Made by a program: the position numbers and the translations under genes. This document shows, in pieces, positions 1,391 through 56,087 of a stretch of DNA of 64,000 bases (position 1 is the stretch's first letter; every line of letters starts with the position of its first letter). Under the pieces are notes generated by a model. That model saw only the letters and a program-made list of their open reading frames with translations. It was not told where the DNA came from and searched no databases. The stretch is from a virus (taxonomy: Duplodnaviria > Heunggongvirae > Uroviricota > Caudoviricetes): the IMG/VR virus record IMGVR_UViG_3300047548_001036, positions 1 to 64,000 of that record, one strand, 5' to 3'.

Positions 1391-1933
1391 ATGAATAACA
1401 AACATTACGTTTTCATGCGCGACATCATTGTGCGCTATCATCCCGACTTCACCTGCAGTCGTTACCTACGGGGTCTGGGCTTGCGCAAGCCCCTGCTGTT
1501 CAACATCGAACGCTTGGTGGAGGAGAGTCTAGCTGCCCAGGGTGGCTACAACTTTGTGGATGAGCCCGGGCGGGACTTTGATGATGCCGAAAATTCGGAC
1601 AGCAAAACCGTCAGCGTGGTCAGTAACAGCAACACTCGACCCAGCTACAGCTTTAGCATACACAACGTGGACACCAAGATCGGTAGCTTGCGGGTCAGCG
1701 TGTTCAATCCCTGGAAAGATGGTGTGGACTATATGTATATTCCACGACAGGCAGTCACCCAGCTGCAGGAGAATGATGGCACACGTGGCACTGCCAACAT
1801 GACCAAGCGACGCATACGCACCACCTGGAGCCAGCCCCTGGATCACTACAATCGACTGGACAGCTATCGTGTACCCAGCTTTCCACAGCTGGCACAGTGT
1901 CAGGCAGTGCCCACAGTTCGTTGGACCATTTGA
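1391..1933 (+). CDS. hypothetical protein (start uncertain; ORF opens at 1334)
   Basis: ORF 1334-1933; internal ATG at 1391. Confidence 0.4.
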   Translation: MNNKHYVFMRDIIVRYHPDFTCSRYLRGLGLRKPLLFNIERLVEESLAAQGGYNFVDEPGRDFDDAENSDSKTVSVVSNSNTRPSYSFSIHNVDTKIGSLRVSVFNPWKDGVDYMYIPRQAVTQLQENDGTRGTANMTKRRIRTTWSQPLDHYNRLDSYRVPSFPQLAQCQAVPTVRWTI

Positions 1934-1991
1934 CACGCTCAGTTTGCGCACATACAATAGACACACGTTAACAACACACAGGAATAGACGC

Positions 1992-4160
1992 ATGATTCTC
2001 AACAACGCACCCGTCGACCGGGCCCTGGTCAGTAATGTGGGCGCCGTGGGCGAATTCCGTATTCGCAACAGTGCCAAGGCCTTTAGCATTCTCAGCTCGG
2101 GTTTGTATGCCAACAAGATTCGCGCTATCATTCGAGAGCTCAGTACCAATGCCCTGGACAGTCATCGGGCTGCGGGTCGTGTGCATGTGCCCTATGATCT
2201 GCACTTGCCCACCAGCCTGGAACCCTGGTTTGCCATTCGTGACTATGGTACGGGCCTGGATGCTGCACAAGTACAGGACATCTATACCACTTACTTCGAA
2301 AGTACGAAAACGGAGAGCAATGACTACGTGGGCTGCTTGGGTCTGGGCAGCAAGAGTCCTTTTGCCTACACCGATAACTTTACTGTTACTGCCATCAAGG
2401 GCGGCGTGCGCACCATCTACACTGCCTTCATCAACGAGCAGGGTGTGCCCAGCATTGCGCAGATGATGACCGAAGCCAGTGATGAGCAGTCGGGTGTGGA
2501 GGTCAAGTTTGCCGTGGACAACGCTGCTGACTTCAATCGTTTCCGTCAGGAAGCACAGCATGTCTACCGACATTTTGCCCATCGCCCTGTGGTCAATGTT
2601 GATAACTTTGAGTTCATCAACGTCAAATACGAACAGCGTGACATTGTACCCGGTGTGCATCAGGTCACGCAGCATGGTGCCAGCCTGGCGGTCATGGGCA
2701 ACATTGCCTACCCCATTGATGTGCCCAACCCCGATCAGACTCTGGGTCATCTGGCTAACCTGCTGCGCTGTGGTCTGGAACTGCACTTTGACATTGGTCA
2801 ACTGGACTTCCAGGCCAGTCGTGAAGGTCTCAGCTATATTCCCAGCACCGTGGAAGCTATCCGCCAGCGACTGCAAGAGCTCAATCAGGCACTGTACCAG
2901 GTGCTCGAGCGCGAGGCAGCTGAATACACCAATGCTTGGGAACTGGCGCTCTGGCTGGACCGGCGCCTGGATACCCCGCTTTGGTCGGCTGCTGCCATCA
3001 AGTACGTGACCGACACCCAGTTTCCCCTGATCGACACCAGTCGTGGCAGCTATGACCGCATGAAGAAGTTTGAGTTCACTGAAGACGACTTGGCCTCCAA
3101 GTACAACATCAGCATCCAGGGCTTTACTAGGTATCGCGGTGATGTTGCTGCCAAGCACATGAAGCCGGATAACCGCAGTGTCAATCGCGTGGGTGGGGGC
3201 ATTGTGCGTGAGAACTACTGGCGCATTCGCATTGGCAACGACGTCTACTTTGCTGAAAATGACACCAAGATCGGGGCCATGGAGCGTGGTAAGTATCACT
3301 GGCGCGAGAACCAGAAGACTATGCCCACCACCAGCAACGTGGTCTACATTCTCAGTGCCGTGGACAAGACCCAGCCCATGAAGTTTGCCGAGTTTATGGC
3401 CGCACTGCATAACCCTCCGCGTCAGTGCAAGGTCAGCAGCTGGCTGCAGAAGCCGCGTGCCAACACCGGCGCTGCATTGGCTCGTGATGTCACCGTGCTC
3501 AAGCTCGAGGATGAAGACCGCGGCTATTGGAGTCGTCAACGTGGCAAGGTCTGGCGTGATGCTGGTCGGGCTGATGGGTTCCTTACTGATAAGACTTACT
3601 TCTATCTGCCGCTCAGTAGCTATGCTCTGGTCACCACACATGGCGAAGTTGACGCCAAGCACCTTTGCATTCAGGTTACTAGCTCGGGACTGTTTAACAT
3701 CAGTGATTTCTATGGGGTGCGCAAGGCCGATCTGGATTGGGTCAAGGCCCAGCCCAACTGGGTTAACCTGGAAGATCATCTGGCTGCGCAGTTTAAGAAA
3801 GGGTTCTCGACGAAAACGATTTCGGGTCTGGCTCTCAAAATCTATGAGAACAAGCATACCCGCATGAGCATCAGCGACCCCCTGCTGGACAAGATTGTGG
3901 ATGCCAAGAGCCCGTTTGTTCAGGCTGTGAGTACGTTTAAGGGTATCAGTTCCATTGAATACAATAGTCTGAGTATCGAGTGGTTGGCCCGTCGTTATGC
4001 GGGCAAGGATCCTCTCAAGCAGGCCCTGGCGCTGGCGGATCAGGTGGCTGACAGCTTTGCTAGGTATCCCATGATGCGCTTGGTTAATTCTGGGTACGGG
4101 CTCAACAACATTGAAGTCGTTGCGGAATATATTAATCTGGTGGATCGCACTACGGTATAA
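1992..4160 (+). CDS. rIIA: rIIA-like protein with N-terminal GHKL (Bergerat-fold) ATPase domain
   Basis: N-box IRELSTNALDS, G1 box IRDYGTGLD, G2-like GLGSKSPF. Size ~720 aa. AGGAA RBS before ATG 1992; the first 123 nt of the ORF overlap the previous gene. Confidence 0.6.
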   Translation: MILNNAPVDRALVSNVGAVGEFRIRNSAKAFSILSSGLYANKIRAIIRELSTNALDSHRAAGRVHVPYDLHLPTSLEPWFAIRDYGTGLDAAQVQDIYTTYFESTKTESNDYVGCLGLGSKSPFAYTDNFTVTAIKGGVRTIYTAFINEQGVPSIAQMMTEASDEQSGVEVKFAVDNAADFNRFRQEAQHVYRHFAHRPVVNVDNFEFINVKYEQRDIVPGVHQVTQHGASLAVMGNIAYPIDVPNPDQTLGHLANLLRCGLELHFDIGQLDFQASREGLSYIPSTVEAIRQRLQELNQALYQVLEREAAEYTNAWELALWLDRRLDTPLWSAAAIKYVTDTQFPLIDTSRGSYDRMKKFEFTEDDLASKYNISIQGFTRYRGDVAAKHMKPDNRSVNRVGGGIVRENYWRIRIGNDVYFAENDTKIGAMERGKYHWRENQKTMPTTSNVVYILSAVDKTQPMKFAEFMAALHNPPRQCKVSSWLQKPRANTGAALARDVTVLKLEDEDRGYWSRQRGKVWRDAGRADGFLTDKTYFYLPLSSYALVTTHGEVDAKHLCIQVTSSGLFNISDFYGVRKADLDWVKAQPNWVNLEDHLAAQFKKGFSTKTISGLALKIYENKHTRMSISDPLLDKIVDAKSPFVQAVSTFKGISSIEYNSLSIEWLARRYAGKDPLKQALALADQVADSFARYPMMRLVNSGYGLNNIEVVAEYINLVDRTTV

Positions 4161-14409: not shown

Positions 14410-14610
14410 ATGGCACAGATTACCAAACCCATAGCATATCGCGTAGATATCATGGAGTTCGATCGTTTTATGGGCAGCAAGTTGGATGAAACTATCTACT
14501 TTGATAACGAAGCAGAAGCTCGCGAACATGTACGCAATTTCAATTCTCTGAACACTGCAGACACTGTACCGGATTGGTATATGGTTGCTGAATATTGTGG
14601 GCGGGTTTAA
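14410..14610 (+). CDS. hypothetical protein (66 aa)
   Basis: AAAGGAGAA RBS before ATG 14410; ORF opens at 14386. Confidence 0.45.
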   Translation: MAQITKPIAYRVDIMEFDRFMGSKLDETIYFDNEAEAREHVRNFNSLNTADTVPDWYMVAEYCGRV

Positions 14611-14611
14611 T

Positions 14612-14857
14612 ATGAACGAACGAATTCGAGAACTTGCTGAACAGGCTAGCGAAAAAATCAATTACAGAGTCGATCCGAATACATTCAGTGAAATTGACGA
14701 TCCGAACGGTCCCCACATTCGAACACAATTCAATAAAGAAAAGTTCGCCGAGTTGATTGTGAAAGAATGTATGCAAGTGTCAATGAAGTCTGTTGAAATG
14801 GACGCAGATTACGAAGCATGGTATTTGATTAAACAGCATTTCGGAGTTGACGAATGA
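14612..14857 (+). CDS. FAELIV..HFG family small protein
   Basis: MNERIRELAEQASEK...KFAELIVKECMQ...HFGVDE. Confidence 0.6.
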   Translation: MNERIRELAEQASEKINYRVDPNTFSEIDDPNGPHIRTQFNKEKFAELIVKECMQVSMKSVEMDADYEAWYLIKQHFGVDE

Positions 14858-15742: not shown

Positions 15743-15785
15743 ACTGACATAATATCTGACAACGAAATGGATAAGGAATAAGATC

Positions 15786-16148
15786 ATGGCACGCAAGACC
15801 AAGGCAGAACGCGAAGCAGAAGCACATCTGGCCCGCGTCGAACAGGAAATGAGGGCTCGAGACGCATACCCAGCCCTGCTCATGGAGACGCTAGAACGCG
15901 CAGCCAAACTGAGCTTCGACCTTCGCGTTCGTGACGGCAAGTTCGAAGTCCTTGATAGTAATTCTCCGGTAGACTATTGGACGCTGACCTATGACTACAC
16001 CCCCGACGCTGACAGCGATCTGGACATGCTCCGGTGGGAAGTTGAGCGGCAAGAACAAGCCATAGCAGAAGCCAATCGCAAGATCCAAGCCCGGCAAGCT
16101 GCTCTGGCCAAACTGAGCCTGGAAGAACGCGAACTGCTGGGACTTTAA
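15786..16148 (+). CDS. hypothetical coiled-coil protein (120 aa)
   Basis: ORF. Confidence 0.5.
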   Translation: MARKTKAEREAEAHLARVEQEMRARDAYPALLMETLERAAKLSFDLRVRDGKFEVLDSNSPVDYWTLTYDYTPDADSDLDMLRWEVERQEQAIAEANRKIQARQAALAKLSLEERELLGL

Positions 16149-19192: not shown

Positions 19193-20290
19193 ATGTTTCC
19201 GTATATTATTCAAGGCAATTCTATCAGCATCGTCGTCGACCGCAAGCCTTATACCATTAACAAGACGCACATTACCTACGATAAGCTTCGTGCGGCCATC
19301 AAGGCTGAGGACTGGAATGCAGTTCGTGAGCTGGTCGAACCCAAACAGGTGGTGATTAATTATGCAGTGGGCAACGTCACTATCCGTGGTGACGAGTTCT
19401 TCTGGAACAATCGCCCCATGCACAATGCATTGAGCAACAAGATGATCGAGATGCTGCGTGAAGGGTTCACTATCGATCCCCTGATCAACTTCACTGAAAA
19501 CCTCATGCAGAACCCTAGCAAGCGTGCAGTTGATGAACTCTATGGCTTCCTTGACAAGGGCAACCTCCCCATCACACCCGACGGCCACTTCCTGGCTTAC
19601 AAGAAGGTTCGCGAGGATTACACTGACTGCCATACTGGCAAGATCAGCAACCATGTTGGCGCACTCGTTACCATGGAGCGCAATGAAGTTGATGACAACC
19701 GTGATCAGACTTGCAGCACTGGCCTGCACTTCTGCAGTCAAGAGTACCTCAAGAGCTTTGGTGGCGCTCGCACCATGATCCTTAAGATCAACCCGCGTGA
19801 TGTTGTCAGTATCCCTAGCGATTACAACGACAGCAAGGGACGCTGCTGCCAGTACGAAGTTATCGGTGAGCTGGAAGCTGCTCCGGAAAAAGCTTTTACC
19901 AAACCCGTGCAAGCTAACGCACAGGGTGTCAAGACTATTGAACCCAAGACTGGCAGCACCCCGTTCTATCATGGCTACAACGATGGCTATCAAGGACTCT
20001 ACCATGCTTCGGATGCATATTGCCTGAGTGAAAAGGATCGCACTGATTACAACGAAGGTTACAGCAAGGGCAACACGGATCGTTGGAATGGCACCGAACG
20101 TTATCGTTACGTTCCCAAGCCGCAAGTTGACAGTCGTGGTCGCGCACTAAGTATGACCAAGGATGCTATTCGCAAGCGCGAGGCCCGTGCACGGGCCCGT
20201 GCGCAAGCTGCTGCTAACAATGTAGCTGCTGCTACTGTAGCTACTGCTAACGCTAACACGGGCTCTGCATGGCCCTTCCCTAAGGCCTAA
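19193..20290 (+). CDS. hypothetical protein (365 aa) with Tyr/Asp/Gly-rich segment and Ala-rich C-terminal tail
   Basis: large ORF with RBS; no family recognised. Confidence 0.55.
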   Translation: MFPYIIQGNSISIVVDRKPYTINKTHITYDKLRAAIKAEDWNAVRELVEPKQVVINYAVGNVTIRGDEFFWNNRPMHNALSNKMIEMLREGFTIDPLINFTENLMQNPSKRAVDELYGFLDKGNLPITPDGHFLAYKKVREDYTDCHTGKISNHVGALVTMERNEVDDNRDQTCSTGLHFCSQEYLKSFGGARTMILKINPRDVVSIPSDYNDSKGRCCQYEVIGELEAAPEKAFTKPVQANAQGVKTIEPKTGSTPFYHGYNDGYQGLYHASDAYCLSEKDRTDYNEGYSKGNTDRWNGTERYRYVPKPQVDSRGRALSMTKDAIRKREARARARAQAAANNVAAATVATANANTGSAWPFPKA

Positions 20291-26808: not shown

Positions 26809-26968
26809 GATTTGGGAATTCCTATGGGATGGCTGTTGGCACCACTGGCAAGCAAAAGAGAAGAGAACAATGTACAGCAAGGAGTCCGATAAACTTCCAA
26901 TCGGAAACAAGTACGTTTATCAATGCAGCAAATGTTTTAAAATTAAATCTACTAAGGACTATCAATGA
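26795..26968 (+). CDS. small Cys/His/Trp-rich protein (putative Zn ribbon)
   Basis: C..C..H..C..C pattern; ORF opens at 26774. Confidence 0.35.
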   Translation: MTMRKIWEFLWDGCWHHWQAKEKRTMYSKESDKLPIGNKYVYQCSKCFKIKSTKDYQ

Positions 26969-27237
26969 AATTTCGAGGCGTTACTCTTATTGAACTAATG
27001 ATTGTCCTAGCCATACTAGGCATTCTTGCGGGTGTGGTAGTTCCCAGCGTTATCGGAGGAAACACGCATGTCAGCTCCGGTTACAGTATTGGCATCAACG
27101 GCACTGTGGAGGAGCGTTGTATTGCTGGCTATAAGTTTGTAGTTGGTAACAAGGGTCAGCCTACACAGGTCTTGGACCAATTTGGAAAAGGGGTACCATG
27201 TGACAATCAAGTATCAACTCCGGGGCAGTTCAAATAA
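26965..27237 (+). CDS. type IV pilin / pseudopilin-like protein (class III signal peptide)
   Basis: MKFRG|VTLIELMIVLAILGILAG: G at -1, E at +5, hydrophobic helix. Confidence 0.55.
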   Translation: MKFRGVTLIELMIVLAILGILAGVVVPSVIGGNTHVSSGYSIGINGTVEERCIAGYKFVVGNKGQPTQVLDQFGKGVPCDNQVSTPGQFK

Positions 27238-27672: not shown

Positions 27673-27830
27673 AACGCCGCAGCGGAGGAATTTATACACA
27701 GGCGCTTATTACCTGCACCGACTGCAAAACTATGATCAGTAGTTCAGGAGGTCCCAGATACAATAGCGTCTGCGTTAACTGCTATGGCATACGCAAGCTC
27801 GCAGGATTTGTTGATGGTAAAAAGGTCTAG
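27615..27830 (+). CDS. small CxxC-n27-CxxC zinc-ribbon protein
   Basis: GAGGAAA RBS before ATG 27615; ORF opens at 27582. Confidence 0.4.
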   Translation: MDREIIGYQETQEGYKEILKRRSGGIYTQALITCTDCKTMISSSGGPRYNSVCVNCYGIRKLAGFVDGKKV

Positions 27831-27858
27831 AAAAAATTTCGTTTCATTTCTTCTAGAC
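27825..27858. terminator. palindrome GTCTAGAA-n18-TTCTAGAC spanning the stops of two convergent genes
   Basis: seen directly; no clear U-tract. Confidence 0.35.
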
Positions 27859-28351
27859 GTTGCAGTATCTTAGGCAGTACTTTGCTTTCTGTTTCTCCAG
27901 CCGTGGTAACTGTTTCGGGAGGGTTATCTAGCATAACCAATGCGTTTTTAACAGGCTTTGGTGCAATGTCTACTACAGGGTCCACTACAGGGTCAACTAC
28001 TGGAACAGGATCTGGAACCATACTAGGAACCCACTCTGGCACCATTTCAGCTGGAGTCGAAACTTCCTCAATTATATCTAGATCTTCCTTAACAGGAACC
28101 TCGGGTTCTGCCTCCTTGGGAGGGTTGCGTACAACAAATGACATTAAGACGTTGGCGACTTCAACGATTTCCCTTTCAGTAGGATGTGGTGGTATTGTAG
28201 GATAAGCTACACGAAGACGCTGAGTTTTCCACAAATGTTCACTCTCAATTAACCATTTGTTGTGTAACTCAGCTCTTCTGTCAGTATACTCGCTAGTAAC
28301 CAACTCTTTGGCCATTCTAAGGATTTCTAAGTTGACCGGATCGTATTCCAT
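27827..28351 (-). CDS. Pro-rich hypothetical protein (174 aa)
   Basis: ORF, first gene of minus-strand cassette (last transcribed). Confidence 0.5.
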   Translation of the reverse strand: MEYDPVNLEILRMAKELVTSEYTDRRAELHNKWLIESEHLWKTQRLRVAYPTIPPHPTEREIVEVANVLMSFVVRNPPKEAEPEVPVKEDLDIIEEVSTPAEMVPEWVPSMVPDPVPVVDPVVDPVVDIAPKPVKNALVMLDNPPETVTTAGETESKVLPKILQRLEEMKRNFF

Positions 28352-28353
28352 GG

Positions 28354-28764
28354 TTATTTGCTAGTAGTTGGGGCAGGTGGTGTTGGTTCCGGCGGAGCTG
28401 GTTCGGTGGGTACTGGCTCGCAACTAGCACCGTATGGCATCGCATCGTATGCGCCAACAATATCCTCAAAATCAGTAAGATCTAGTATAACGCTAGGGTT
28501 ACTTAGGTCCAGCATATTTTCCACCATTTCATGTAGTTCCATGTCAGAGTTGACATCTTCTTTGGCATACTCAAGCAGTTTAAGCATTAGAGGAACGTTT
28601 ACCTTTAAGATGGGTTGTATTAGCTTGGGCCTTCTTGTTGGATCAACAGGCTGCATCTGAGGAGCCATTTGCGGCATTTGAGGCGGCATTGTATCAAAGT
28701 ATTCTTCGACGGTAGTTGTTTTCTTATACATATTACTTCCTTTTATTAGATCTTTTGCTAGCAC
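28354..28764 (-). CDS. Pro-rich hypothetical protein (136 aa)
   Basis: ORF. Confidence 0.5.
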   Translation of the reverse strand: MLAKDLIKGSNMYKKTTTVEEYFDTMPPQMPQMAPQMQPVDPTRRPKLIQPILKVNVPLMLKLLEYAKEDVNSDMELHEMVENMLDLSNPSVILDLTDFEDIVGAYDAMPYGASCEPVPTEPAPPEPTPPAPTTSK

Positions 28765-28984
28765 GGATTTTAGTACCAGGCGCCCTCATTTGATTAATGT
28801 TTGCATACTGATAAACGTCCTCCATGTACCCGCTGTTGTAGATATCTTGGTATATACCTGCGTAATAGTCAGGATAGTAGTATGGGTGATAGACATAATG
28901 TGGATAATACCGAGGATAATAACGGGGATAATAATGATAGTAATGATCGTAATACATAATATCTTCCTTTAAATAATCCACCAA
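28733..28984 (-). CDS. tyrosine-rich small protein (YYPRYYPRYYPHYVYHPYYYPDYY)
   Basis: ORF; extreme Tyr content. Confidence 0.4.
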   Translation of the reverse strand: MVDYLKEDIMYYDHYYHYYPRYYPRYYPHYVYHPYYYPDYYAGIYQDIYNSGYMEDVYQYANINQMRAPGTKIRASKRSNKRK

Positions 28985-29421
28985 CCTGCTGCTCGATAAA
29001 CAATTTGCACACTTTGGTTAGGCACGCTGATCGTATAATTTGTTTTTTTATCAATTAGTGTCCCGGTTGGCGGTTGTATTGTTATCTTTCCAGATCCTTG
29101 TCCGTATTCATCTTTTATAATATAAACGCGACCTTCTGGAGGAGTGTTGGGCAAAGTAATTGTTACTGCTGATGAGGAACTAACTCCAATGTATTCGTCA
29201 TCAATGGTTGCAGTATAACTTGTGGTTGTTCCGTAGACATGAATCAGATCGGCTCCAGTTGAGCTGATCATAATGAAATCAGTGTCGTACTCTACGGTAA
29301 TACCTGCTCCGGAGATTATTTCTGGGCTGCTGATAATTCCAGTGTCGTCGACGTTGATATAATTACCAACTTTGACTACACCGTATTCGGTTTTGCTAGT
29401 TGGTTGTGCTAGATAAGACAT
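28969..29421 (-). CDS. structural-like protein sharing C-terminal domain (..AAGWWII) with next gene
   Basis: AAGGAG RBS before MSYLAQPT; paralogous C-terminus. Confidence 0.5.
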   Translation of the reverse strand: MSYLAQPTSKTEYGVVKVGNYINVDDTGIISSPEIISGAGITVEYDTDFIMISSTGADLIHVYGTTTSYTATIDDEYIGVSSSSAVTITLPNTPPEGRVYIIKDEYGQGSGKITIQPPTGTLIDKKTNYTISVPNQSVQIVYRAAGWWII

Positions 29422-29432
29422 TCTTATTCTCC

Positions 29433-30130
<698 letters not shown>

Positions 30131-30144
30131 ACAAAACGAACGGA

Positions 30145-31044
30145 TTAACGAACGTTATTGCTTGTGCTAGACTGACCAACACCGGCCATTGTACCGAAGT
30201 TAACCATGCCTTGACGAGTGTCAGCTAGTTGGCTGTTGAAGTTCTGCATCATGGACTGTAGTTGAGCAAACTGAGCACCAAATTGGTTTTGCTCAGCAGC
30301 GTGTCTCCAGTGGCGATGTGCGTGACGCTCTTCAACTAATTCAGCATTGCGCTCAACTAGACCACGGTTTAGGTCGTGATACTTAAGGTCATTGATAAGC
30401 CCACGGGTACGATCACCTTCAGCTCCGATCTTGTCAGCAAGATACTGAGTATTCTTCTGAGCTTCGATAATGCCCTTGAGTGCAGCTAGTTCAGTATCCT
30501 TAGCAACACCTGCAAATCCTGCAACAACTTGCTGTTGTTGAGCAACGATTTGAGCGCGGATGTCTTGGGTGTCACGAGCAACTGTGAAGAAACGATCTCC
30601 CATTTGTGTTCGTAAATCTGCAACATCCTTAGCATTACGATCTTGAGCGTTTTCAACGCGGCTGCTTAGGTTGAAGTTAGAGTTATTGATAGCTGCATCT
30701 AAGCGATCAGTCGATGCCTCAACGCGACTTACAGTTTCATAACGTCCATCTTTAACGGCGTTAACGGTGTTGAAGTCGCCCTTTAGACCTTCTTTAACGA
30801 TTTCGTTAACATTGTCACCTATTTGACGGCTTAGTTCAAAAGCTTGACGCTGTTGTTCTAAACGAATGTCACTAGCTGTTGACGCAACTAGATCGCCAGT
30901 CTTGTCAATTCCAGCTGCAACTTCACGGCGAATATCGCCGCTACGTTCTGCCATGTTGTAACGAAGCTCTGCGGTGTGCTCAGCAGCTTCACGACGAATG
31001 TCAGCGTGCTGGTTTGTTAGCAATTGTGTATCTACTTCTGCCAT
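30145..31044 (-). CDS. coiled-coil, Ala/Gln/Asp-rich hypothetical (structural?) protein (299 aa)
   Basis: AGGAGAAAATT RBS; low-complexity helical repeats. Confidence 0.55.
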   Translation of the reverse strand: MAEVDTQLLTNQHADIRREAAEHTAELRYNMAERSGDIRREVAAGIDKTGDLVASTASDIRLEQQRQAFELSRQIGDNVNEIVKEGLKGDFNTVNAVKDGRYETVSRVEASTDRLDAAINNSNFNLSSRVENAQDRNAKDVADLRTQMGDRFFTVARDTQDIRAQIVAQQQQVVAGFAGVAKDTELAALKGIIEAQKNTQYLADKIGAEGDRTRGLINDLKYHDLNRGLVERNAELVEERHAHRHWRHAAEQNQFGAQFAQLQSMMQNFNSQLADTRQGMVNFGTMAGVGQSSTSNNVR

Positions 31045-31114
31045 AATTTTCTCCTAATTAGATTATGTCTTGAGCAGATAAAATATCATCTGCTCATAAT
31101 TACTTAAAAAGGTT

Positions 31115-31150
31115 TAGGTCCTAAAAACCTAAACCTTTGTTGATGGTTAT
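31115..31150 (-). terminator. rho-independent terminator (minus strand)
   Basis: AGGTTTAGG-loop-CCTAAACCT followed by TTTTT on minus strand. Confidence 0.55.
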
Positions 31151-31159
31151 ACTTCGGTA

Positions 31160-31741
31160 TTAAATGGCAGCGATAGAGAATTGCTGTATGTTGTTATAAA
31201 CGATACCCCATCCAAACTCTTGAGCTAGCTGGTTAATACATTGGTGTCCAGCATCTAATGAGGCGATATCTGCAGCCCAATCGCCTTGATCTCTGGATTC
31301 AACTTGGTTAACTGTTTGAGTTAAATGTTCTGTCCACACCGGGCCCATTTTGGTCACAGGCCAGTCTGTAGGATCAACCATGGCCATCCAATTAACGATA
31401 TCGTTTCCGTTGTCTGTTAACTTGGTTTTGACATCGACTAAGTCTGCTTTATTCTTAACCGCAGTGATATATTCTGCAGCAAAAGCAACATGTTTTTTTA
31501 GTAATGCTACAAATGCATCAACTTGTTCAAGACTATAATAAGGAGCAAGCAAAGCACCTATGTCTTCTTGATTTTTTAACAATCTAGCAGATATCGCTTC
31601 AACGTCAGGCAATCCCGCTAGAATGCTAACAATAGCCTGTCTTGTATAGTACAAGTGCTCGGTCCAATAGTAAGTGGATTTTTTGCAAATGCTATTAATT
31701 GCTTCTGGATTTTCTTTATAATAGGTTGTAACTTTGTACAT
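31160..31741 (-). CDS. hypothetical protein (193 aa)
   Basis: GGAGGAGAG RBS before MYKVTTYY; ORF opens at 31810. Confidence 0.5.
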   Translation of the reverse strand: MYKVTTYYKENPEAINSICKKSTYYWTEHLYYTRQAIVSILAGLPDVEAISARLLKNQEDIGALLAPYYSLEQVDAFVALLKKHVAFAAEYITAVKNKADLVDVKTKLTDNGNDIVNWMAMVDPTDWPVTKMGPVWTEHLTQTVNQVESRDQGDWAADIASLDAGHQCINQLAQEFGWGIVYNNIQQFSIAAI

Positions 31742-31760
31742 GGTGCTCTCCTCCATGTAC

Positions 31761-32534
31761 TTAAACGGGTAGTGCGTCAGAATCGGTAGACGGTAGTCTA
31801 CCCTGTACATTATTGGTTAACGGAAATCGTTTGGAAAACAATGCAAGCTGTGTTCTGTTTTTGCAACCATATTTTTTAAGAACTTTACCAACATGTAACT
31901 TAACTGTACTTTCACTGATATCCAACATCTTTGCAATGACTTTATTAGTTGCTCCTCGGTCACATATTAGTTTTAAAATTTGTTCTTCGCGAGGAGTTAG
32001 ATCAATGGTGTTTTTCTTACATACTATGGATTTTTTAGGCTTGAGCAAATCCAATACATGTTTAGGTATACTGTAATCTCCTGAAATGGTGCGCTTTAGG
32101 TTTTCTTTAACTAACTCATATCCCCATTTTTCGGTTAACAGCGTACCTAAAAAGATATCAGGCATTAGGATTGCTTGTCGAATTAACTTAGGATCGGTAA
32201 TATCTCCGACTAACAAGCAAATTTTAGTTTCTCGTCTAACAGGTTTTCCGATACCGTTCCTGTAAACCGTGCATTTTATTAGCGTAGATAAAGTATTGAT
32301 CATGTCAAATGCGTCCGCTTCGGCATGCGCATCAACTAATCGAGAAAGTGGCAGTGTTATAACGTCTATCCTAAGGGTCGGATCGCTTAACATTGGGAAT
32401 AGTTCAGAAATTGCATCAACTTCAATGAAGTCTATCCCTAACTCTCGTTCAATGGTTGCTAGCGCCCTCTGCTGAATAGTGTTAGAAACAGGCGGCTGCA
32501 TATATGTAAATACTAACCGTTTTTCGTTGCTCAT
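31761..32534 (-). CDS. LuxR/GerE-family HTH transcriptional regulator with atypical receiver-like N-terminal domain
   Basis: C-terminal LTPREEQILKLICDRGATNKVIAKMLDISESTVKLHVGKVLKKYGCKNRTQLA; GGGAGA RBS. Confidence 0.6.
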   Translation of the reverse strand: MSNEKRLVFTYMQPPVSNTIQQRALATIERELGIDFIEVDAISELFPMLSDPTLRIDVITLPLSRLVDAHAEADAFDMINTLSTLIKCTVYRNGIGKPVRRETKICLLVGDITDPKLIRQAILMPDIFLGTLLTEKWGYELVKENLKRTISGDYSIPKHVLDLLKPKKSIVCKKNTIDLTPREEQILKLICDRGATNKVIAKMLDISESTVKLHVGKVLKKYGCKNRTQLALFSKRFPLTNNVQGRLPSTDSDALPV

Positions 32535-32703
32535 TTTTAATCTCCCTATAATAATACTTACGCACTAGTAGTACAAGGCATGATGTGCACGAGTACTACC
32601 TGTACTTCAGCATATGTAATTGTGACAGCCAATTTCAATAATTTTACGCTACTATTTGATAGATGTCTATGCATCCGACTTTTATTTTTGCTAACTAATC
32701 CAG

Positions 32704-32737
32704 TTGACTTTACAGCTAAAGTGCGCTATAATACAGC
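32704..32737 (+). promoter_or_regulatory. sigma70 consensus promoter TTGACT-17-TATAAT + conserved cassette
   Basis: TTGACT 32704-09, TATAAT 32727-32. Confidence 0.65.
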
Positions 32738-32739
32738 TA

Positions 32740-33056
32740 TGACAGAACACTGCTATGTTGCATATTTTGACTGCTTGGGTTTCGAGTGCATTTTGGATGC
32801 AACCGCACATGACCGAAAACGGACTTGGAATGCCTTACAGGACAAATCTAGTGAACGGTTTCCTTTAACTGAGTTACTCTTGCGAGCTAGGCTTAATACA
32901 CAACGAAACCCCGAAGTCTGGAGCTTTTGGAGTGAGATTGACCTAGAAACACTTAACCGTTATTCGATCGAAATGCCGCAGCAATTTGCAGATCTCATTC
33001 GTGAAAAAGGTACTCCTCTTTACCAATCAGGTAAACAATCGCAAGTTATCAAATAA
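32740..33056 (+). CDS. hypothetical protein (105 aa)
   Basis: ATG 8 nt after -10 box (near-leaderless). The ORF-list start 32580 spans the promoter. Confidence 0.45.
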
Positions 33057-47327: not shown

Positions 47328-47734
47328 AGCAATTTTTATGGAAACTGTTGGGCTTTGCTAGTCTGTGTCTGGCATACATTGGGTTGATTACTCCGGGCTT
47401 GCCTTACTCGCCGTTTATTGTATTTGCTGCCTATTGCTTTTCAAAAGGGAGCCCGCGTATGCATGCCTGGATTTACAATCACAAGGTATTTGGGCCATTT
47501 CTAACAAACTGGACCGAAAAACGAGTGTTCCCCATACGTATGAAATTCTTCATGCTGGCCATGATGACTACCAGTTTAATCATCATGTTTAGCAGCGGAG
47601 TTAAACTCATAGGTGTTATTTCTACTGCAATTTTCATGGCACTGGTTGCTATCTGGGCCTGGAGATTCCCCAGCAGTGTGACCGAACATGAACGTAGAAT
47701 TGCACAAGGTAAAAAGATCGGTTGGTTTAAATAA
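47324..47734 (+). CDS. YbaN-like inner membrane protein (DUF454)
   Basis: [50 protein letters not shown]. Confidence 0.55.
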
Positions 47735-48914
47735 TTGCTTTCAGTGCATTTATTAAATCTTCAATCATACCATCTGTATGCATAGGGGTAGGAACTAATC
47801 TTAAACGTTCAGTTCCTACATCTACTGTTGGTGAATTTATAGCCTGAACATATATGCTATACTCATTTAACAATATATCACTGAACTCCTTAGTCTTAAA
47901 CGCATCACCTATCAATATGGGAACGATATGCGTATTGCTAGGCATAAACGGCAACCCTGCTTTATCTAATAAGTACTTGAGTTTTTGGACTCTACCCTGA
48001 TGCTCTTCTCTAAGACTGTTGTGTTCTTTTAGATATCTTACAGACGCCAATGCCCCTGCACACAACACGGGACTAAGACTGGTTGTAAAAATAAACCCTG
48101 CTGCAATACTACGAATTGCATCAATAACTACAGAATCTGCAGCAATGTATCCCCCCTGAACACCAAATGCCTTACCCAAGGTGCCGTTTACAATATCAAC
48201 ACGATCTTGTAATCCTAGTTTCTCTAATTTGCCGGCGCCTGTTCCTCCATACAGTCCAACGGCGTGGACTTCGTCGATGTAAGTCATAGCCTGGTATTGA
48301 TCTGCAAGGTCGCAAATTTCACGAATCTTGCTGACATCACCGTCCATGGAATAGACGCTTTCAAACACCACACATGGTGTTTTTCCTTGCTCTCGACTAC
48401 GTCGTAAACACGATTCTAGATCATCTAAGTCATTGTGAATAAAAACTTGTTTTGCAGCCTGGCTATGTTTAATGCCTACGATTATACTGTTATGATTTTT
48501 ACTATCACTGATAAATTCGATGTTAGGGATTATTTTGGACAATGCAATCATAGTCCATTCATTGGCCACATAGGCACTGCTGAACAACAGTGCTCGATTT
48601 TTCTTGTGTAATGTAGCAAGCTCATGTTCTAATGCTACATGATAATGAGTGGTTCCAGATATATTACGTGTGCCACCACTGCCTGCACCAGTCATATCAA
48701 TCGCGGTATGCATGGCATCAAGTACAACTTTATGCTGCCCCATGCCCAAATAATCATTACTGCACCAGTTTACGATGTTCTTAATAGCGTATGGTCCGTA
48801 CCAAATTGAATTAGGAAACTTCCCACTTTCTCGCAATATGTTGTTAAAAACCCTGTATTTGCCCTGCTGTTTTAAGTCAGTGATAACATTTTGAAATATA
48901 CTTCGGTCTATCAT
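47727..48914 (-). CDS. hemA: 5-aminolevulinate synthase (PLP-dependent alpha-oxoamine synthase family)
   Basis: KYRVFNNI...[12 protein letters not shown]...[13 protein letters not shown]...ELATLHKK and PLP-lysine region TLGKAFG. Confidence 0.75.
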
Positions 48915-49572: not shown

Positions 49573-50910
49573 ATGACCCAACTTGCACCTCCGAAGATTT
49601 TAAAAATAAATGTAACTAGATTGGATCCACTCGATGCATATGGATCTGAACCGTTTGCATCTCAGCCATGGAAATTCAGAGTTAGGTTATTAGTAGAACC
49701 ACAGATACACAGTGATTTACGAACCCCTAGACCTGGAATATATAACGGATTTGATGTAGTACCTGGCAATTTTATTTCTACTCAACGATCAAAAATTTTA
49801 AAAATTGATCAAATAGAATCACAAACTGCTGACCAGCTAATTTGTATATGCTCAGATACTAATCGTATAAACTCCAGCATTGACGAAAACCAAACTGGCG
49901 AAAGTGCAATTGAAACAGGATACGGGTTACTATTTACCGCAACTAAAGGTGTTCCGGTATTATTCCCATTACCAGGTAATATACAAGGTATCAGCACCAG
50001 CGATTTAATTGGAATCATTGGTAGATTCTTCTACTCCGATGCATCTGGATTTGCAGAAGGCGTATTAGGTTACACCGGATCTCAAGGCTATAGAGGATAT
50101 ACTGGCAGTAGAGGCCCATCGGGTACCAATATTGTTGTAAAAGGAAACGTACCTACTGCAAGTGATTTGCCTCCTACTGGAAATGCAGTCAACGATTCAT
50201 ATTTTGCTGATGACACCAAAGAACTATGGATATGGAGTAGTGCTGGCAACTGGTATAGTGCGGGACGTATCGTAGGCCCAACAGGTGACGTAGGATATAC
50301 CGGATCCGCTGGATACACGGGTAGTCAGGGTATTTCTGGATACACGGGTAGCCAAGGCCTACCTGGAGATCAAGGTGGCATCGGGTTTACTGGAAGTCAG
50401 GGCTATGTAGGTAGTCGAGGTGTCGAAGGCCCCGCTGGGCCTATCGGATATGCTGGTAGCCAAGGTGAAACTGGTTACGTCGGTAGTCGAGGACTACAAG
50501 GGTTCCGTGGAGAGTTAGGATATACTGGTAGCCAAGGTCCACAAGGTGCACCGGGAACGGCTGGTGGTACAGGGGCGTCTGGTTACACAGGTAGTCAAGG
50601 TATACAAGGATTTGCAGGTCCATCAGGCTACGCAGGTAGTCGAGGGTCCTTAGGATACACGGGATCGATTGGATATACCGGTAGTACTGGGATAATGGGG
50701 TACACCGGTAGCACGGGCGGGGATGGCGCAGATGGATATACCGGTAGCCGAGGATATACCGGTAGTAATGGACCAAATGCGATTGGACAGGCGACAATTA
50801 GCCAGGTACAAGCAGAAAACGGGGCAGTTTTGGTATATTCTGCTCAAGTCAACGAGTGGGCACCAAAAGTAACGCTTGATGCTCAAATCGTAGAAGGCGG
50901 GTTTTTTTAA
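49573..50910 (+). CDS. collagen-like repeat tail fiber protein
   Basis: ~30 GYTGSxG / G-X-Y repeats (GYTGSQGYRGYTGSRGPSG...). Confidence 0.65.
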   Translation: MTQLAPPKILKINVTRLDPLDAYGSEPFASQPWKFRVRLLVEPQIHSDLRTPRPGIYNGFDVVPGNFISTQRSKILKIDQIESQTADQLICICSDTNRINSSIDENQTGESAIETGYGLLFTATKGVPVLFPLPGNIQGISTSDLIGIIGRFFYSDASGFAEGVLGYTGSQGYRGYTGSRGPSGTNIVVKGNVPTASDLPPTGNAVNDSYFADDTKELWIWSSAGNWYSAGRIVGPTGDVGYTGSAGYTGSQGISGYTGSQGLPGDQGGIGFTGSQGYVGSRGVEGPAGPIGYAGSQGETGYVGSRGLQGFRGELGYTGSQGPQGAPGTAGGTGASGYTGSQGIQGFAGPSGYAGSRGSLGYTGSIGYTGSTGIMGYTGSTGGDGADGYTGSRGYTGSNGPNAIGQATISQVQAENGAVLVYSAQVNEWAPKVTLDAQIVEGGFF

Positions 50911-53752: not shown

Positions 53753-55012
53753 TTATCTCCTGCTAAAATGATAGTCGCCGTCAGGACCATTATCGCAAAA
53801 CGGTCCTGACAGGAAATTAAATCCTAGGGATAGCACATATCTAATTACTTCATCCCTTAACGGTGCGCCTTTATTGTACTCTACCGCTTGCAACTCGAGT
53901 ATTAAATCAGTGCAATGCCTTAGACATTCTGTTGCACCCATTAAGACATCAAGTTCGGCCCCTTGTACATCCATTTTAATTAAATTTGGCATGGGCAGAC
54001 CTTTTTGTTTGACCACAGTATCAAGTGTCATGGCAGTAACAGTTCTTTTATGTTTTTCATTAAACAGCTCTTTAGCAGCCGGACTTAATTCTACGTTTTC
54101 TCTGTAATAACTGTTTCCTCCCGGATGTTCAGTATTTTGATAAAACTCTAGTGTTCTTCCATCATAGTTACTGAGCACTCCAATCGCGTAGTCAAGTCCC
54201 TTTTCCTTATATAAGGACTCGACTTCTGGCATAGCCTCAAATGCTATAAATTTAGCATCGGGCCATATCGCACTAGCTTCATTGGTCCAATGTAATACAC
54301 ATGCACCTATGTCGTAAATTACATTGGGCGTTACTTGATGACTCAAGGCTTTTAAATAATCCACATGAGTCTGAGGTAACAGGCGCCGACTGCCTAATTC
54401 CTTAAGGTGTTGTTGAACAGTGGGTGTTGGATTGTCATCAACTACAAACACGCTACTTCCATGATGCCCGCAATGTATGCTGGTATCTGCAAATATCTTA
54501 TATCCTTTTTCTTTTGCACGCAAGCAAAAATAAGTATCTTCGCTAACAGTATTTGCATGGTCTATGGCGGACTTATAAACAAACTGAGGATACCCAATAT
54601 CTCTAATCACTTGGCTTTTAACCAACACACATCCAAATCCACAGCCATCAACTTCAACCAGACCTTTTCCTTTAATACTATTATAAGATATGTTAATTCC
54701 ATTATTATAAAGTTCAAGAATGTGCTGCCCGGGTTTCCTTTGAATATACAGGCCTGAAACTACGTCTTTGTCATGTGCCAATAATTTCTTTAACGTATCG
54801 GGCTTAAATGATATGTCACTATCTACACTGAACAAATAATCATACTTTTCAGCCCAATGTGCAATTAAATTTCTAATCTGATCAACTTGATCCGAAACAA
54901 AAGGTTGGAATGTTAAATTATGTCCGGCCGGAACTTCTAAGTCATATATGCTTTTAAATGTTTCTGGTTCAACGTACTTATCAGTTGGGACTGCGATTAA
55001 AATTGTTTTCAT
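53753..55012 (-). CDS. bifunctional glycosyltransferase (DxD, GT2-like) / FkbM-family methyltransferase
   Basis: N-terminal domain with DSD; C-terminal VIYDIGACVLHW...MDVQGAELDVL (FkbM-like). Confidence 0.55.
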   Translation of the reverse strand: MKTILIAVPTDKYVEPETFKSIYDLEVPAGHNLTFQPFVSDQVDQIRNLIAHWAEKYDYLFSVDSDISFKPDTLKKLLAHDKDVVSGLYIQRKPGQHILELYNNGINISYNSIKGKGLVEVDGCGFGCVLVKSQVIRDIGYPQFVYKSAIDHANTVSEDTYFCLRAKEKGYKIFADTSIHCGHHGSSVFVVDDNPTPTVQQHLKELGSRRLLPQTHVDYLKALSHQVTPNVIYDIGACVLHWTNEASAIWPDAKFIAFEAMPEVESLYKEKGLDYAIGVLSNYDGRTLEFYQNTEHPGGNSYYRENVELSPAAKELFNEKHKRTVTAMTLDTVVKQKGLPMPNLIKMDVQGAELDVLMGATECLRHCTDLILELQAVEYNKGAPLRDEVIRYVLSLGFNFLSGPFCDNGPDGDYHFSRR

Positions 55013-55070: not shown

Positions 55071-56087
55071 ATGGATTATATTCCCTATACATATCTCATA
55101 GGATGGTCAAAATTAAACAAATGGTATTACGGAGTTGAGTACGGAATTAAAAAAATTCCTTGTGCAAATCCAAAAAACTTATGGACCACATACTTTACTT
55201 CTTCGAACATAGTTTCTCACTTTCGAAAAACCCACGGAGAACCAGATATTATTCAGGTAAGAAAACTTTTTTCTAAAGGGCCTCTAGAAGAAAGGATGGA
55301 AATGTCTATAAATTGGGAGAAGAAAGTTTTATCGAAAATTAACATTGGAGATGAAAAGTGGATTAATGGAAGAATTGGGGGCAATATTTGCCCTTCTGCT
55401 AATAAAAAAATTGCTAGACTTCGATACGGAGTCGATAATGTTTTTCAAGCAGAAGAAATAAAGAAAAAAATAAAAGAAAGAAATTTAAAAAAATTTGGAG
55501 TTGAACACCCGTCATACTCGACAGTTTTATTAGACAAGAAAAAGAAAAATAATATTGAAAAATACGGAATCACTTGTAATTTGAGTTTTTCTTCTGTGAG
55601 AGAGAAAGCAAAAGAATCGCTTCGAACAGAAGAGGTTAAAAAGAAAAGAAAAGAAACTATTAAAAGTAGATACGGGGTCGAACACCTAACACAATCCAAC
55701 GACATTAAAGCGCGTGTACTTGCAACTCGTAGCATTTTATCAGAAAGACCTAATGTTAAACTTATAAAAGAATATCAAAGAGTTTTTAATATAACATTGA
55801 CTAGCGGTTGGTATCAAGGATCAGATGAAAAATTAATCTTAATACTACAAGAAATACATTCCATGTATGGAGTATACTCTTATAGTGAGTTGTCTGAAAT
55901 TGCGTTACCTAAAAAATATTCATCTTCTATAAAAGAATTACAAGAGAGACCTATTGTGAAAAAAATTAAACAATATAAAGATACATACGGTAGAAAAATT
56001 AAAATAGGTCGCTCATGGGATAGAAAATCTGAAGAGTATCTTATTGAAGTTTTAAGTATGCTGGAAAAAACGTACGGACTACTTTAA
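55071..56087 (+). CDS. GIY-YIG homing endonuclease-like protein with K-rich repeated (K/R)YGVEHP modules
   Basis: YTYLIGWSKLNKWYYGVEYG ... SHFRKTHGE ... EERMEMSINWEKK ... NGRIGG; four YGV(E/D)(H/N) repeats; very AT-rich. Confidence 0.5.
   Translation: MDYIPYTYLIGWSKLNKWYYGVEYGIKKIPCANPKNLWTTYFTSSNIVSHFRKTHGEPDIIQVRKLFSKGPLEERMEMSINWEKKVLSKINIGDEKWINGRIGGNICPSANKKIARLRYGVDNVFQAEEIKKKIKERNLKKFGVEHPSYSTVLLDKKKKNNIEKYGITCNLSFSSVREKAKESLRTEEVKKKRKETIKSRYGVEHLTQSNDIKARVLATRSILSERPNVKLIKEYQRVFNITLTSGWYQGSDEKLILILQEIHSMYGVYSYSELSEIALPKKYSSSIKELQERPIVKKIKQYKDTYGRKIKIGRSWDRKSEEYLIEVLSMLEKTYGLL

Follow-up and report, generated by a model that had tools for sequence, protein, structure and literature searches.

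A conserved inverted gene cassette of uncultivated T4-like phages combines a predicted helical rod with collagen-like and tyrosine-rich proteins and, in one sub-clade, a LuxR-type regulator

The minus strand of a 64,000-nucleotide (nt) stretch of viral DNA assigned to the Caudoviricetes (positions 1 to 64,000 of IMG/VR record IMGVR_UViG_3300047548_001036; hereafter the window) carries, between positions 27827 and 32534, eight consecutive genes that are labelled g1 to g8 in transcription order. Analysis of the list of open reading frames (ORFs) and of the reverse-strand sequence, combined with the comparison of related loci, indicates that this cassette is very probably a real, conserved and co-regulated phage module. 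The explanation put forward here, which we regard as evenly poised, is that the cassette constitutes an accessory virion-fibre module of uncultivated T4-like large phages and that its major gene, g3, is controlled by the NarL/CsgD-like regulator encoded by g1.

Organisation and conservation of the cassette

The first gene, g1 (31761-32534, minus strand, as are the other seven), encodes a NarL/CsgD/VpsT-like regulator of 257 amino acids (aa) with a C-terminal LuxR/GerE helix-turn-helix (HTH) and a family-specific N-terminal domain. It is followed by g2 (31160-31741), whose product is a 193-aa acidic protein that is accessory and present only in some cassettes, and by g3 (30145-31044), whose 299-aa product (12% Ala, 9% Arg and 8% Gln) is a predicted alpha-helical rod of about 35 nm and the putative major component. 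Downstream, g4 (29433-30077) codes for a 214-aa protein made of an N-terminal helix, a Cys motif, a (G-X-Y)18 stalk, a second Cys motif and a beta-sandwich knob, with 10 Cys in all, and g5 (28969-29421; 150 aa counted from the ATG) for a predicted short beta-fibre with a knob of the g4 type. The last three products are g6 (28733-28957; 74 aa from the ATG or 83 aa from a TTG start), with 30% Tyr and belonging to the 'type B' described below, the 125-aa Pro/Met/Gln-rich acidic accessory protein g7 (28354-28731; 16% Pro), and g8 (27827-28351; 174 aa, 13% Pro), in which a conserved helical N-terminal half precedes a Pro/Val-rich tail. A preliminary description of the window, made from the sequence alone, had listed these eight ORFs as a LuxR-type regulator, a 193-aa protein, a 299-aa Ala/Gln-rich protein, a collagen-like pair ending in WWII, an 83-aa Tyr-rich protein and two Pro-rich proteins, and their positions, lengths and compositions all agree. 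Shine-Dalgarno sequences precede g1 to g7, as it had also proposed, and g8 starts 2 nt past the g7 stop codon. Its view of an otherwise plus-strand genome has to be corrected, because minus-strand genes are also found at 47727-48914, 53753-55012 and 56079-59294, together with a minus-strand ORF at 63064-63648. When the eight proteins were searched against Pfam, PHROG, NCBIfam and PADLOC, the results were informative only for the HTH of g1 and the collagen repeats of g4.

The window is part of a T4-like phage. A homologue of rIIA is located at 1869-4160 and a homologue of rIIB at 19193-20290, and genes resembling those for tail fibres and the baseplate wedge occupy the region from 49 to 62 kb. 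The closest identity to a cultured phage, 36-43%, was found for rIIA. The cassette forms an inverted island within a region of early type, where many small plus-strand genes are preceded by near-consensus TTGAC-17-TATAAT promoters. In T4-like genomes, isolated late genes are arranged as inverted islands in early regions.

Synteny of g3 and g4 was detected in 57 IMG/VR viral contigs and in two JGI contigs of 263 and 459 kb. A g4 homologue lies directly after g3 in almost every locus and g5 is also present in about half of them, while g8, g7 and g2 are more sporadic and g1 occurs only within a sub-clade comprising about 24 loci. The cassette runs antiparallel to the genes on either side of it in most loci. 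Clustering of the g3 relatives gives more than 1138 groups at 90% identity and 225 at 50%; none is annotated, and their contigs reach 459 kb. For g5 there are 982 relatives, and for g1 253 homologues. In addition, an independent Logan assembly encodes an identical g3 protein, in an unchanged gene order and with unchanged flanks, and the G+C content of the cassette is continuous with that of its flanks. This conserved synteny, the usual inversion with respect to the flanks and a promoter motif of its own that co-occurs with a LuxR-type gene bear out the earlier suggestion of an independently organised and separately regulated module.

The cassette is absent from 50,697 phage records, representing cultured phages, and from 185,579 species genomes, representing reference cellular genomes. 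No match to the phage records was obtained by megablast of the DNA or by tblastn of g3, and tblastn of g5 gave one weak match in the knob domain, to a putative tail fibre of Pelagibacter phage Mosig, which is the sole cultured-phage match. A cellular origin of the cassette was considered and rejected, given that a scan of the species genomes with the g5 family recovered only distant relatives of the knob (31-46% identity).

The gene and RNA content of close relatives points to the hosts of this phage group. A relative on a JGI contig of 263.5 kb (L069; related loci are numbered with the prefix L) carries genes for heme oxygenase, bilin reductase, a PstS-like protein, ribosomal protein S21, HSP20 and ClpS in its flanks. 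Another relative of 258 kb that lacks the LuxR-type gene (L046) contains a group I intron (14541-14743), a PhotoRC-II RNA (15776-15867) and a glutamine riboswitch (3677-3725). The intron, the PhotoRC-II RNA and the riboswitch are typical of cyanophages, and together with heme oxygenase and bilin reductase they suggest that the hosts are probably cyanobacteria.

A late-promoter variant accompanies the LuxR-type gene

Promoter and terminator elements were compared in 46 non-redundant loci, 22 with the LuxR-type gene and 24 without it. The motif (T/G)TAAGTA is present upstream of g3 in 18 of the 22 LuxR-bearing loci and in none of the 24 LuxR-less loci (Fisher p = 2.6e-9, without correction for shared ancestry). 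Among the other four LuxR-bearing loci, three have near variants, GTAAGTAG in two and TTTAAATA in one. Conversely, 11 of the 24 LuxR-less loci have ATAAATA upstream of g3, within TATAAATA in ten of them and within CATAAATA in L056. In the window, the promoter-like element of g3 is TTTAAGTA (31101-31108, minus strand), found at the position where the LuxR-less relatives have TATAAATA, the T4-type late promoter. The spacing between the motif and the hairpin that follows it (of the ATGAGA...TCTCAT kind) is 3 nt in both classes in the loci examined. As far as sequence can tell, TTTAAGTA occupies the late-promoter position with two bases changed. A late promoter of the T4 type (TATAAATA or NATAAATA) was not found in the 90 nt upstream of any cassette gene of the window; in LuxR-less relatives it stands upstream of g3.

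Further copies of the motif are located near g1. One TTTAAGTA (31758-31765, minus strand) overlaps the g1 stop codon and ends 16 nt upstream of the ATG of g2, and a near-copy, GTAAGTATT (32553-32561, minus strand), ends 18 nt upstream of the ATG of g1. In related loci an exact TTTAAGTA occurs 9 nt upstream of the LuxR gene in L001 and 50 nt upstream of it in L013. In the latter locus (L013:7523-9871), on the 459-kb JGI contig of a jumbo-phage relative, g3 is preceded by two LuxR-type genes, of 218 and 382 aa, with a 171-aa ORF between them, and TTTAAGTA is found both before the first LuxR gene and before g3.

Two other roles were considered for sequences in this region and discarded. TTTAAGTA is not the general late promoter of this phage, since the tail-fibre and sugar-modification genes of the window are preceded by the T4-type late element NATAAATA and the 8-mer is not enriched window-wide (6 occurrences against 3.7 expected). 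The palindrome GAGCAGAT-N8-ATCTGCTC upstream of g3 was rejected as a LuxR box because its arms and spacing vary between loci with pairing kept; arms that differ and yet stay complementary indicate an RNA stem. The usual binding sites of LuxR-type proteins are inverted repeats that lie upstream of the core promoter.

The regulator g1

The HTH of g1 (residues 179-233) matches Pfam GerE (PF00196) with 56.9 bits (E 1.6e-15; gathering cut-off 23.5), and the protein matches the DNA-binding domain of NarL with E 1.3e-11. The profile of the g1 family runs in register with residues 110-211 of NarL, 89-204 of VraR and 116-217 of VpsT, a stretch made up of the final receiver helix, the linker and the HTH. 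Pfam gave no match for the N-terminal domain, which is conserved within the family over about 140 residues. Pfam Response_reg (PF00072) was not found in g1 or in the 120 homologues listed of the 253; the alignment of the profile begins only at that final receiver helix, and the position of g1 that is aligned with the consensus 'IDIE' reads LPL. The N-terminus may still conceal a degenerate receiver-like fold. The autoinducer-binding domain PF03472 was likewise not found in g1 or these 120 homologues, and matches to RhlR, CviR, SdiA and LasR are restricted to the HTH. In the PADLOC scan the g1 HTH matched only the HTH regions of CARF/CasR proteins, and g2 to g8 had no matches. By its domain matches, g1 is classed as a predicted regulator of the CsgD/VpsT style (NarL/FixJ) with a non-canonical N-terminal domain.

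The region between g1 and the adjacent plus-strand genes (32535-32740) is a divergent promoter region. It includes a sigma-70-like promoter candidate for g1 (32641-32669, minus strand; TAGACA-17-TAAAAT, 10/12, a match to the consensus only), placed back-to-back with a strong plus-strand promoter at 32704-32732 with the near-consensus sequence TTGACT-17-TATAAT. The 158-aa plus-strand ORF annotated from 32580 probably starts at the Met at 32739.

RNA elements around g3 and at the end of the cassette

Folding against shuffled sequences supported the terminator-like hairpins that had been noted earlier, at 31108-31138, 30088-30119 and 27825-27858, and revealed a fourth at 31071-31096 (all on the minus strand). 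The A/T-rich 14-bp hairpin after g2 (31108-31138; -16.6 kcal/mol, z -3.7) has a U-run that overlaps the g3 promoter motif. The fourth is a stem-loop in the 5' untranslated region (GAGCAGATGAT/ATTATCTGCTC; 31071-31096, z -3.9) at the predicted start of the g3 transcript. In related loci this 5' stem has a different sequence, and the mean perfect stem is 8.5 bp long, compared with 5.8 bp in shuffles. A stem-loop at the 5' end is a classical stabiliser of mRNA. Neither the cassette nor the remainder of the window contains a match to an Rfam family.

Between g3 and g4, just before the ribosome-binding site of g4, lies a G+C hairpin with a U-run of the attenuator type (30088-30119, part of a fold with z -4.1). 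A terminator-like hairpin is present within 100 nt of the g3 stop codon in 32 of the 46 loci and in none of 46 shuffled controls. At the 3' end of the cassette, a 13-bp hairpin followed by CUUUUU (27825-27858, z -5.3) overlaps the stop codon of g8; the convergent termination previously placed here thus rests on a real hairpin, one that sits mostly within the last codons of g8. Both this element and that at 30088-30119 have the G+C hairpin and U-run of Rho-independent terminators. The terminator after g3 predicts a high level of g3 and a lower level of g4 to g8, a pattern in which a major subunit is followed by minor ones.

In the LuxR-less clade, TATAAATA is followed by a conserved non-coding leader of about 240 nt before g3, with stops in all frames (L046:7717-7964, L053:7663-7910, L052:1977-2223, L045:7716-7964, L051:4556-4801, L056:7727-7964, L059:3565-3815 and L039:7655-7964). 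RNAalifold predicted 60 pairs in this leader, 10 of them with compensatory changes, and a comparison with Rfam gave no family at the gathering threshold. Possibly the leader is a novel structured RNA that replaces LuxR-type control.

The proteins encoded by g2 to g8

The AlphaFold2 (AF2) model of g3 consists of a helix from residue 6 to 242 (237 residues, about 35 nm), a second helix from 252 to 286 and a disordered tail. Its hydrophobic periodicity peaks at 3.67 residues (power 123) and not at 3.5 (power 9), which points to a predicted rod of hendecad, not heptad, type. Alignment of the homologues revealed a conserved N-terminus (MAEVDT..HADIRRE), a variable number of GDIRRE-type repeats of about 22 residues and a near-invariant C-terminus, ..ETRQGMVNFGTMAGVGQSSTSNNVR; in the window g3 ends in ...RQGMVNFGTMAGVGQSSTSNNVR. 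In profile searches the N-terminal repeats matched helical repeat regions of four long Pfam Gp58 proteins, one of which also carries Prophage_tail. Neither a PDB sequence search nor Foldseek of the model against the PDB found a relative, and a null Foldseek result is expected for a single long helix. The match to Pfam Apolipoprotein A1/A4/E (PF01442) reached 15.1 bits, below the cut-off of 90, and the common feature is only the 11-residue periodicity.

The collagen-like protein g4 matches Pfam Collagen (PF01391) with 41.4 bits (cut-off 27.2) and has 18 uninterrupted G-X-Y triplets. Its order of elements is conserved: an N-terminal amphipathic helix, CxC, the collagen stalk, GxCxCxC and a knob with further Cys, with a stalk of 6-45 triplets and 1-10 Cys among homologues. 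The C-terminal 87 residues of g5 are 46% identical to g4 (E 2e-19), so that g5 is a paralogue of the C-terminal domain of g4. With up to 85% identity, g5 is the most conserved protein of the cassette. Its N-terminus (..TEYGVVKVG..) and the inserts of longer homologues (..NTGVLSLTAGPGI..) presumably correspond to beta-fibre repeats, which they resemble. A PDB sequence search with g5 gave no match. By structure, the knob is a beta-sandwich of the gp9/gp10/XD adaptor type, in common with T4 gp9 and gp10 and the N-terminal domains of CBA120 TSP4. Foldseek of the knob against viral models (BFVD) gave 244 significant matches, many of them collagen-repeat, tail-fibre-like or Gp9/Gp10 proteins. The resemblance to phage tail-fibre, baseplate and capsid-spike domains favours the earlier view of g4 and g5 as structural proteins of fibre type. 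The C1q/TNF-like domain of the BclA kind that had been suggested as a possibility for the C-terminus has to be given up, as no C1q, TNF or BclA structure was found among the matches listed.

A scan of all related cassettes showed that small, extremely Tyr-rich ORFs are nearly universal, so that the Tyr-rich component noticed earlier is not a chance ORF. They fall into two types. Type A proteins are 42-57 aa long, with up to 53% Tyr and usually with Cys, and type B proteins, to which g6 belongs, are 60-97 aa long and combine an N-terminal half rich in Tyr with a conserved motif at the C-terminus. The C-terminal 34 aa of g6 are homologous to the C-terminus of g3. A hidden Markov model (HMM) of the type B motif was run against the 11,508 six-frame ORFs of these loci and matched only type B proteins and the last 30 residues of g3, most with E values from 4e-10 to 1e-6, which establishes a homologous C-terminal module in g3 and g6. 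This module is most likely a common docking or assembly tag.

No match was obtained for g2, g7 or g8 in Pfam, PHROG or NCBIfam, and none for g2 and g8 in a PDB sequence search. Homologues of g2 occur only in L003 and L021, and one of g7 only in L008. The g8 protein is recurrent in the LuxR-bearing sub-clade, with homologues in L001, L002, L004, L006, L008, L013, L022, L026, L027, L060 and L063.

A model for the cassette

In the model that we propose, g1 would probably be made early by the host polymerase from the sigma-70-like promoter candidate and may then activate its own expression. Transcription from TTTAAGTA would subsequently require g1, which would take the fibre set out of the general late programme; that g1 acts at TTTAAGTA is reasonably likely. 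The 5' stem-loop of g3 and a leaky 3' terminator would lead to high g3 and low g4 to g8. Made in quantity, g3 would form a long, straight and probably oligomeric helical rod. A stalk of collagen type would come from g4 and a short beta-fibre from g5; both proteins end in knobs of the gp9/gp10/XD type, which in other phages serve as hubs for docking fibres to one another and to the particle. The C-terminal peptide shared by g3 and g6 would dock both on a common partner, plausibly the knobs. Outside the cell, the Cys of g4 and the Tyr/Cys-rich partners would stabilise the assembly, with g7 and g8 as accessory or assembly factors. We lean slightly towards the virion as the location of these products.

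Several points weigh against this explanation. No homologue of the cassette was found in a cultured phage, from which proteomic or microscopic support for a virion location would have to come. The hendecad amphipathic helix of g3 is also typical of apolipoprotein-like, LEA-like and phasin-like proteins, in line with its weak Pfam apolipoprotein matches, and a gp9/gp10-like beta-sandwich also occurs in the secreted bacterial proteases CpaA and StcE. With regard to regulation, the Fisher p value is inflated by shared ancestry, since all loci with the LuxR-type gene may belong to a single clade; conservation is limited to an 8-mer at the -10 position, so that direct recognition by a LuxR-type protein would be unusual; and the sensor domain of g1 matches nothing, so that 'conditional' and 'timed' expression are not separable.

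The model can be taken further, to a reading that we consider doubtful. A captured regulator of the NarL/CsgD type, equipped with a non-canonical sensor domain, would decide, according to the state of the cell, whether the progeny receive a cross-linkable coat of rod, collagen-like and Tyr-rich proteins, which would amount to a regulated polymorphism of the virion. As part of the same reading, and equally doubtful, the late promoter TATAAATA would have been converted to the activator-dependent TTTAAGTA, and the shared C-terminal peptide would be a new tag for docking to gp9/gp10-type knobs.

Alternative explanations

The best-surviving alternative is that g3 to g5 form an alternative or additional set of receptor-binding tail fibres on the baseplate, with the regulator switching host range or the mode of adsorption. 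The best structural matches of the knob are indeed baseplate-proximal fibre and tailspike adaptor domains and gp9, g4 and g5 have PHROG matches to tail-fibre families, and the repeats of g3 resemble those of fibre proteins of the Gp58/Prophage_tail kind. However, the window already contains a full set of tail-fibre and baseplate-wedge genes with ordinary late promoters (49.0-53.7 kb and 59.4-62.4 kb). The tips of receptor-binding fibres are normally their fastest-varying parts, whereas g5 is up to 85% identical, and Tyr-rich partners are not a known feature of tail fibres. This explanation appears unlikely, with a low but appreciable probability.

A small probability is given to an intracellular structure in which nothing is packaged, g3 forming a filament or a coat on lipid or membrane (apolipoprotein-, phasin- or intermediate-filament-like) and the Tyr/Arg-rich proteins condensing. 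The 3.67-residue periodicity of g3, together with its weak similarity to Pfam Apolipoprotein and to phasin-type proteins, is compatible with this idea, and its conserved head and tail around a variable rod recall proteins of the intermediate-filament-like kind. The cassettes do contain Tyr/Arg-rich low-complexity proteins, a composition that is that of condensate formers, and no signal peptide is evident in any cassette protein when the sequences are read by eye. Against an intracellular role, g3 is almost always followed by proteins that have the knob fold of virion appendages and N-terminal fibre repeats, the Cys flanking the g4 stalk make most sense outside the reducing cytoplasm, and in LuxR-less relatives g3 is located behind a canonical late promoter, that of structural genes.

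The preliminary description had compared the cassette with an exosporium or spore coat, and this comparison holds only as an analogy of composition. That the cassette produces such a layer, or manipulates sporulation or differentiation of the host, is very improbable. Collagen-like, Cys-rich and Tyr-rich proteins without signal peptides are found here next to a GerE-family regulator, one protein of a giant virus that shares the knob fold bears the annotation 'BclB C-terminal domain', and PrkA-DUF444-SpoVR genes follow the cassette in one close relative. Nevertheless, the knob is not C1q/TNF-like, none of the 185,579 species genomes has the cassette, and the cyanophage markers of the relatives point to hosts without endospore formation. 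Non-sporulating bacteria, too, have the PrkA/DUF444/SpoVR trio. Finally, host-derived DNA or a chimeric assembly, which the preliminary description had named as what would undo its reading and for which the opposite orientation and the bacterial-type regulator are the sole points, has a practically negligible probability, because the independent Logan assembly holds an identical copy with the same order and flanks, the G+C content is continuous, the cassette lies within phage genes in dozens of viral contigs, and no cellular genome (distant knob relatives apart) or cultured phage carries it.

Surroundings of the cassette

In the window, a type IV pilin-like protein is encoded on the plus strand at 26965-27237, convergent with the cassette. 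The assignment of this neighbour as pilin-like in the preliminary description is borne out by a match to PF07963 (N_methyl) and the N-terminal methylation motif MKFRGVTLIELMIVLAILGILAG. The rIIA and rIIB homologues lie about 15 kb apart, with mostly short ORFs between them; in T4 the two genes are adjacent. Between 43267 and 59294, genes for sugar modification are interleaved with genes of tail-fibre type, which include a second collagen-like gene (445 aa, 49573-50910). The sugar genes encode an NAD-epimerase/dehydratase (43290; an exact TATAAATA stands 16 nt before it), a GNAT protein (44393) and, from the minus strand, an aminotransferase (47727), an FkbM methyltransferase (53753) and a GT1+GT2 glycosyltransferase of 1071 aa (56079). 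Late-type promoters of the NATAAATA kind precede the genes for the epimerase, the aminotransferase and the FkbM methyltransferase. This gene set suggests late glycosylation of virion proteins or remodelling of host glycans.

Some relatives carry additional genes after the cassette. An ORF for a papain-like cysteine peptidase (..QGELGSCVGNA..) directly follows the g5 homologue in several cassettes, among them (L003:10870-11670, L004:10908-11675 and L010:10815-11381) and is absent from the window; it is possible that this peptidase processes the fibre proteins. In L069:11103-16636 an ADI/DDAH-like gene and the PrkA - DUF444 - SpoVR trio come after the cassette and share its strand.

Significance

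Accessory fibres and decoration proteins govern the sticking of phages to hosts, particles and mucus, as well as their persistence, and very few have been described for large environmental phages, the dominant ones in metagenomes. The cassette defines linked families without a cultured or annotated member, with more than 1100 clusters for g3, nearly 1000 relatives for g5, about 250 for g1 and proteins that are up to half Tyr. It also provides a natural experiment, in which the same structural gene is located behind a canonical late promoter in one clade and behind a two-base variant together with a LuxR-type factor in another. If the link between the LuxR-type gene and the promoter is causal, it would represent a way in which a T4-like phage frees a structural module from the late programme, and a portable pair of promoter and activator.

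Comparison with known systems

Each part of the cassette has known relatives, namely LuxR-type regulators, collagen-like viral fibres, gp9/gp10-type domains and T4 late promoters. The combination of a rod, a Cys-bracketed collagen-knob protein, a conserved short fibre, Tyr-rich proteins sharing a tag and a LuxR-linked promoter variant was not found in the cultured-phage records, and none of the papers listed in the literature searches deals, by title or abstract, with such a cassette.

A possible counterpart of the predicted g3 rod is the fibritin (wac) of T4, likewise a long alpha-helical fibrous protein of a T4-like phage with conserved ends and a rod of variable length. Fibritin is a trimeric coiled coil based on heptads, with a foldon at the C-terminus and a neck anchor at the N-terminus, whereas g3 has a periodicity of 11/3 and a C-terminus that is predicted to be disordered, without a foldon-like domain; unlike wac, the g3 gene lies outside the neck gene cluster. 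The relatives of the knob are T4 gp9 and gp10, the XD domains of CBA120 TSP4 (PDB 7rej), the proximal subunit of the KP1 long tail fibre (9f4a) and the Pa223 capsid spike (9ny6). Identity to these adaptor domains is only 13-19%, with no significant Pfam or PHROG family, and, unlike them, the cassette knob is placed at the C-terminus, behind a collagen stalk or a short beta-fibre, and has extra Cys. Like SPP1 gp12, the P5 spike of PRD1/PR772, collagen-like tail fibres and the collagen-repeat proteins of giant viruses, g4 combines a G-X-Y stalk with a globular head and lacks a signal peptide. It differs from them in that its stalk is bracketed by CxC...CxCxC and that it belongs to a fixed cassette with a hendecad-type rod and Tyr-rich proteins, which in one sub-clade has its own regulator. 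The exosporium and spore coat of Bacillus (BclA, BclB, ExsY/CotY, Tyr-rich coat proteins and GerE) share with the cassette a collagen-like nap, Cys/Tyr-rich partners, a GerE-family regulator and the lack of signal peptides; however, no homology was detected beyond a generic HTH and collagen repeats, and the cassette belongs to phages whose hosts are probably cyanobacteria.

With regard to regulation, g1 has the HTH in common with NarL/FixJ regulators that have atypical receivers (CsgD and VpsT) and with phage-encoded LuxR-type quorum-sensing receptors, and its overall length and its register of linker and alpha-helix agree with NarL, VraR and VpsT. It differs from them in having neither a Response_reg nor an autoinducer-binding signature, and the conserved element of the cassette is located at -10 instead of being an upstream palindrome. 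That element resembles the gp55/gp33-dependent late promoter of T4, TATAAATA, in being an 8-mer without a -35 partner, in its distance to the hairpin and in six of eight bases. The two changes, at positions 2 and 6 (TtTAAgTA), are conserved and occur only in the cassettes that encode the LuxR-type regulator.

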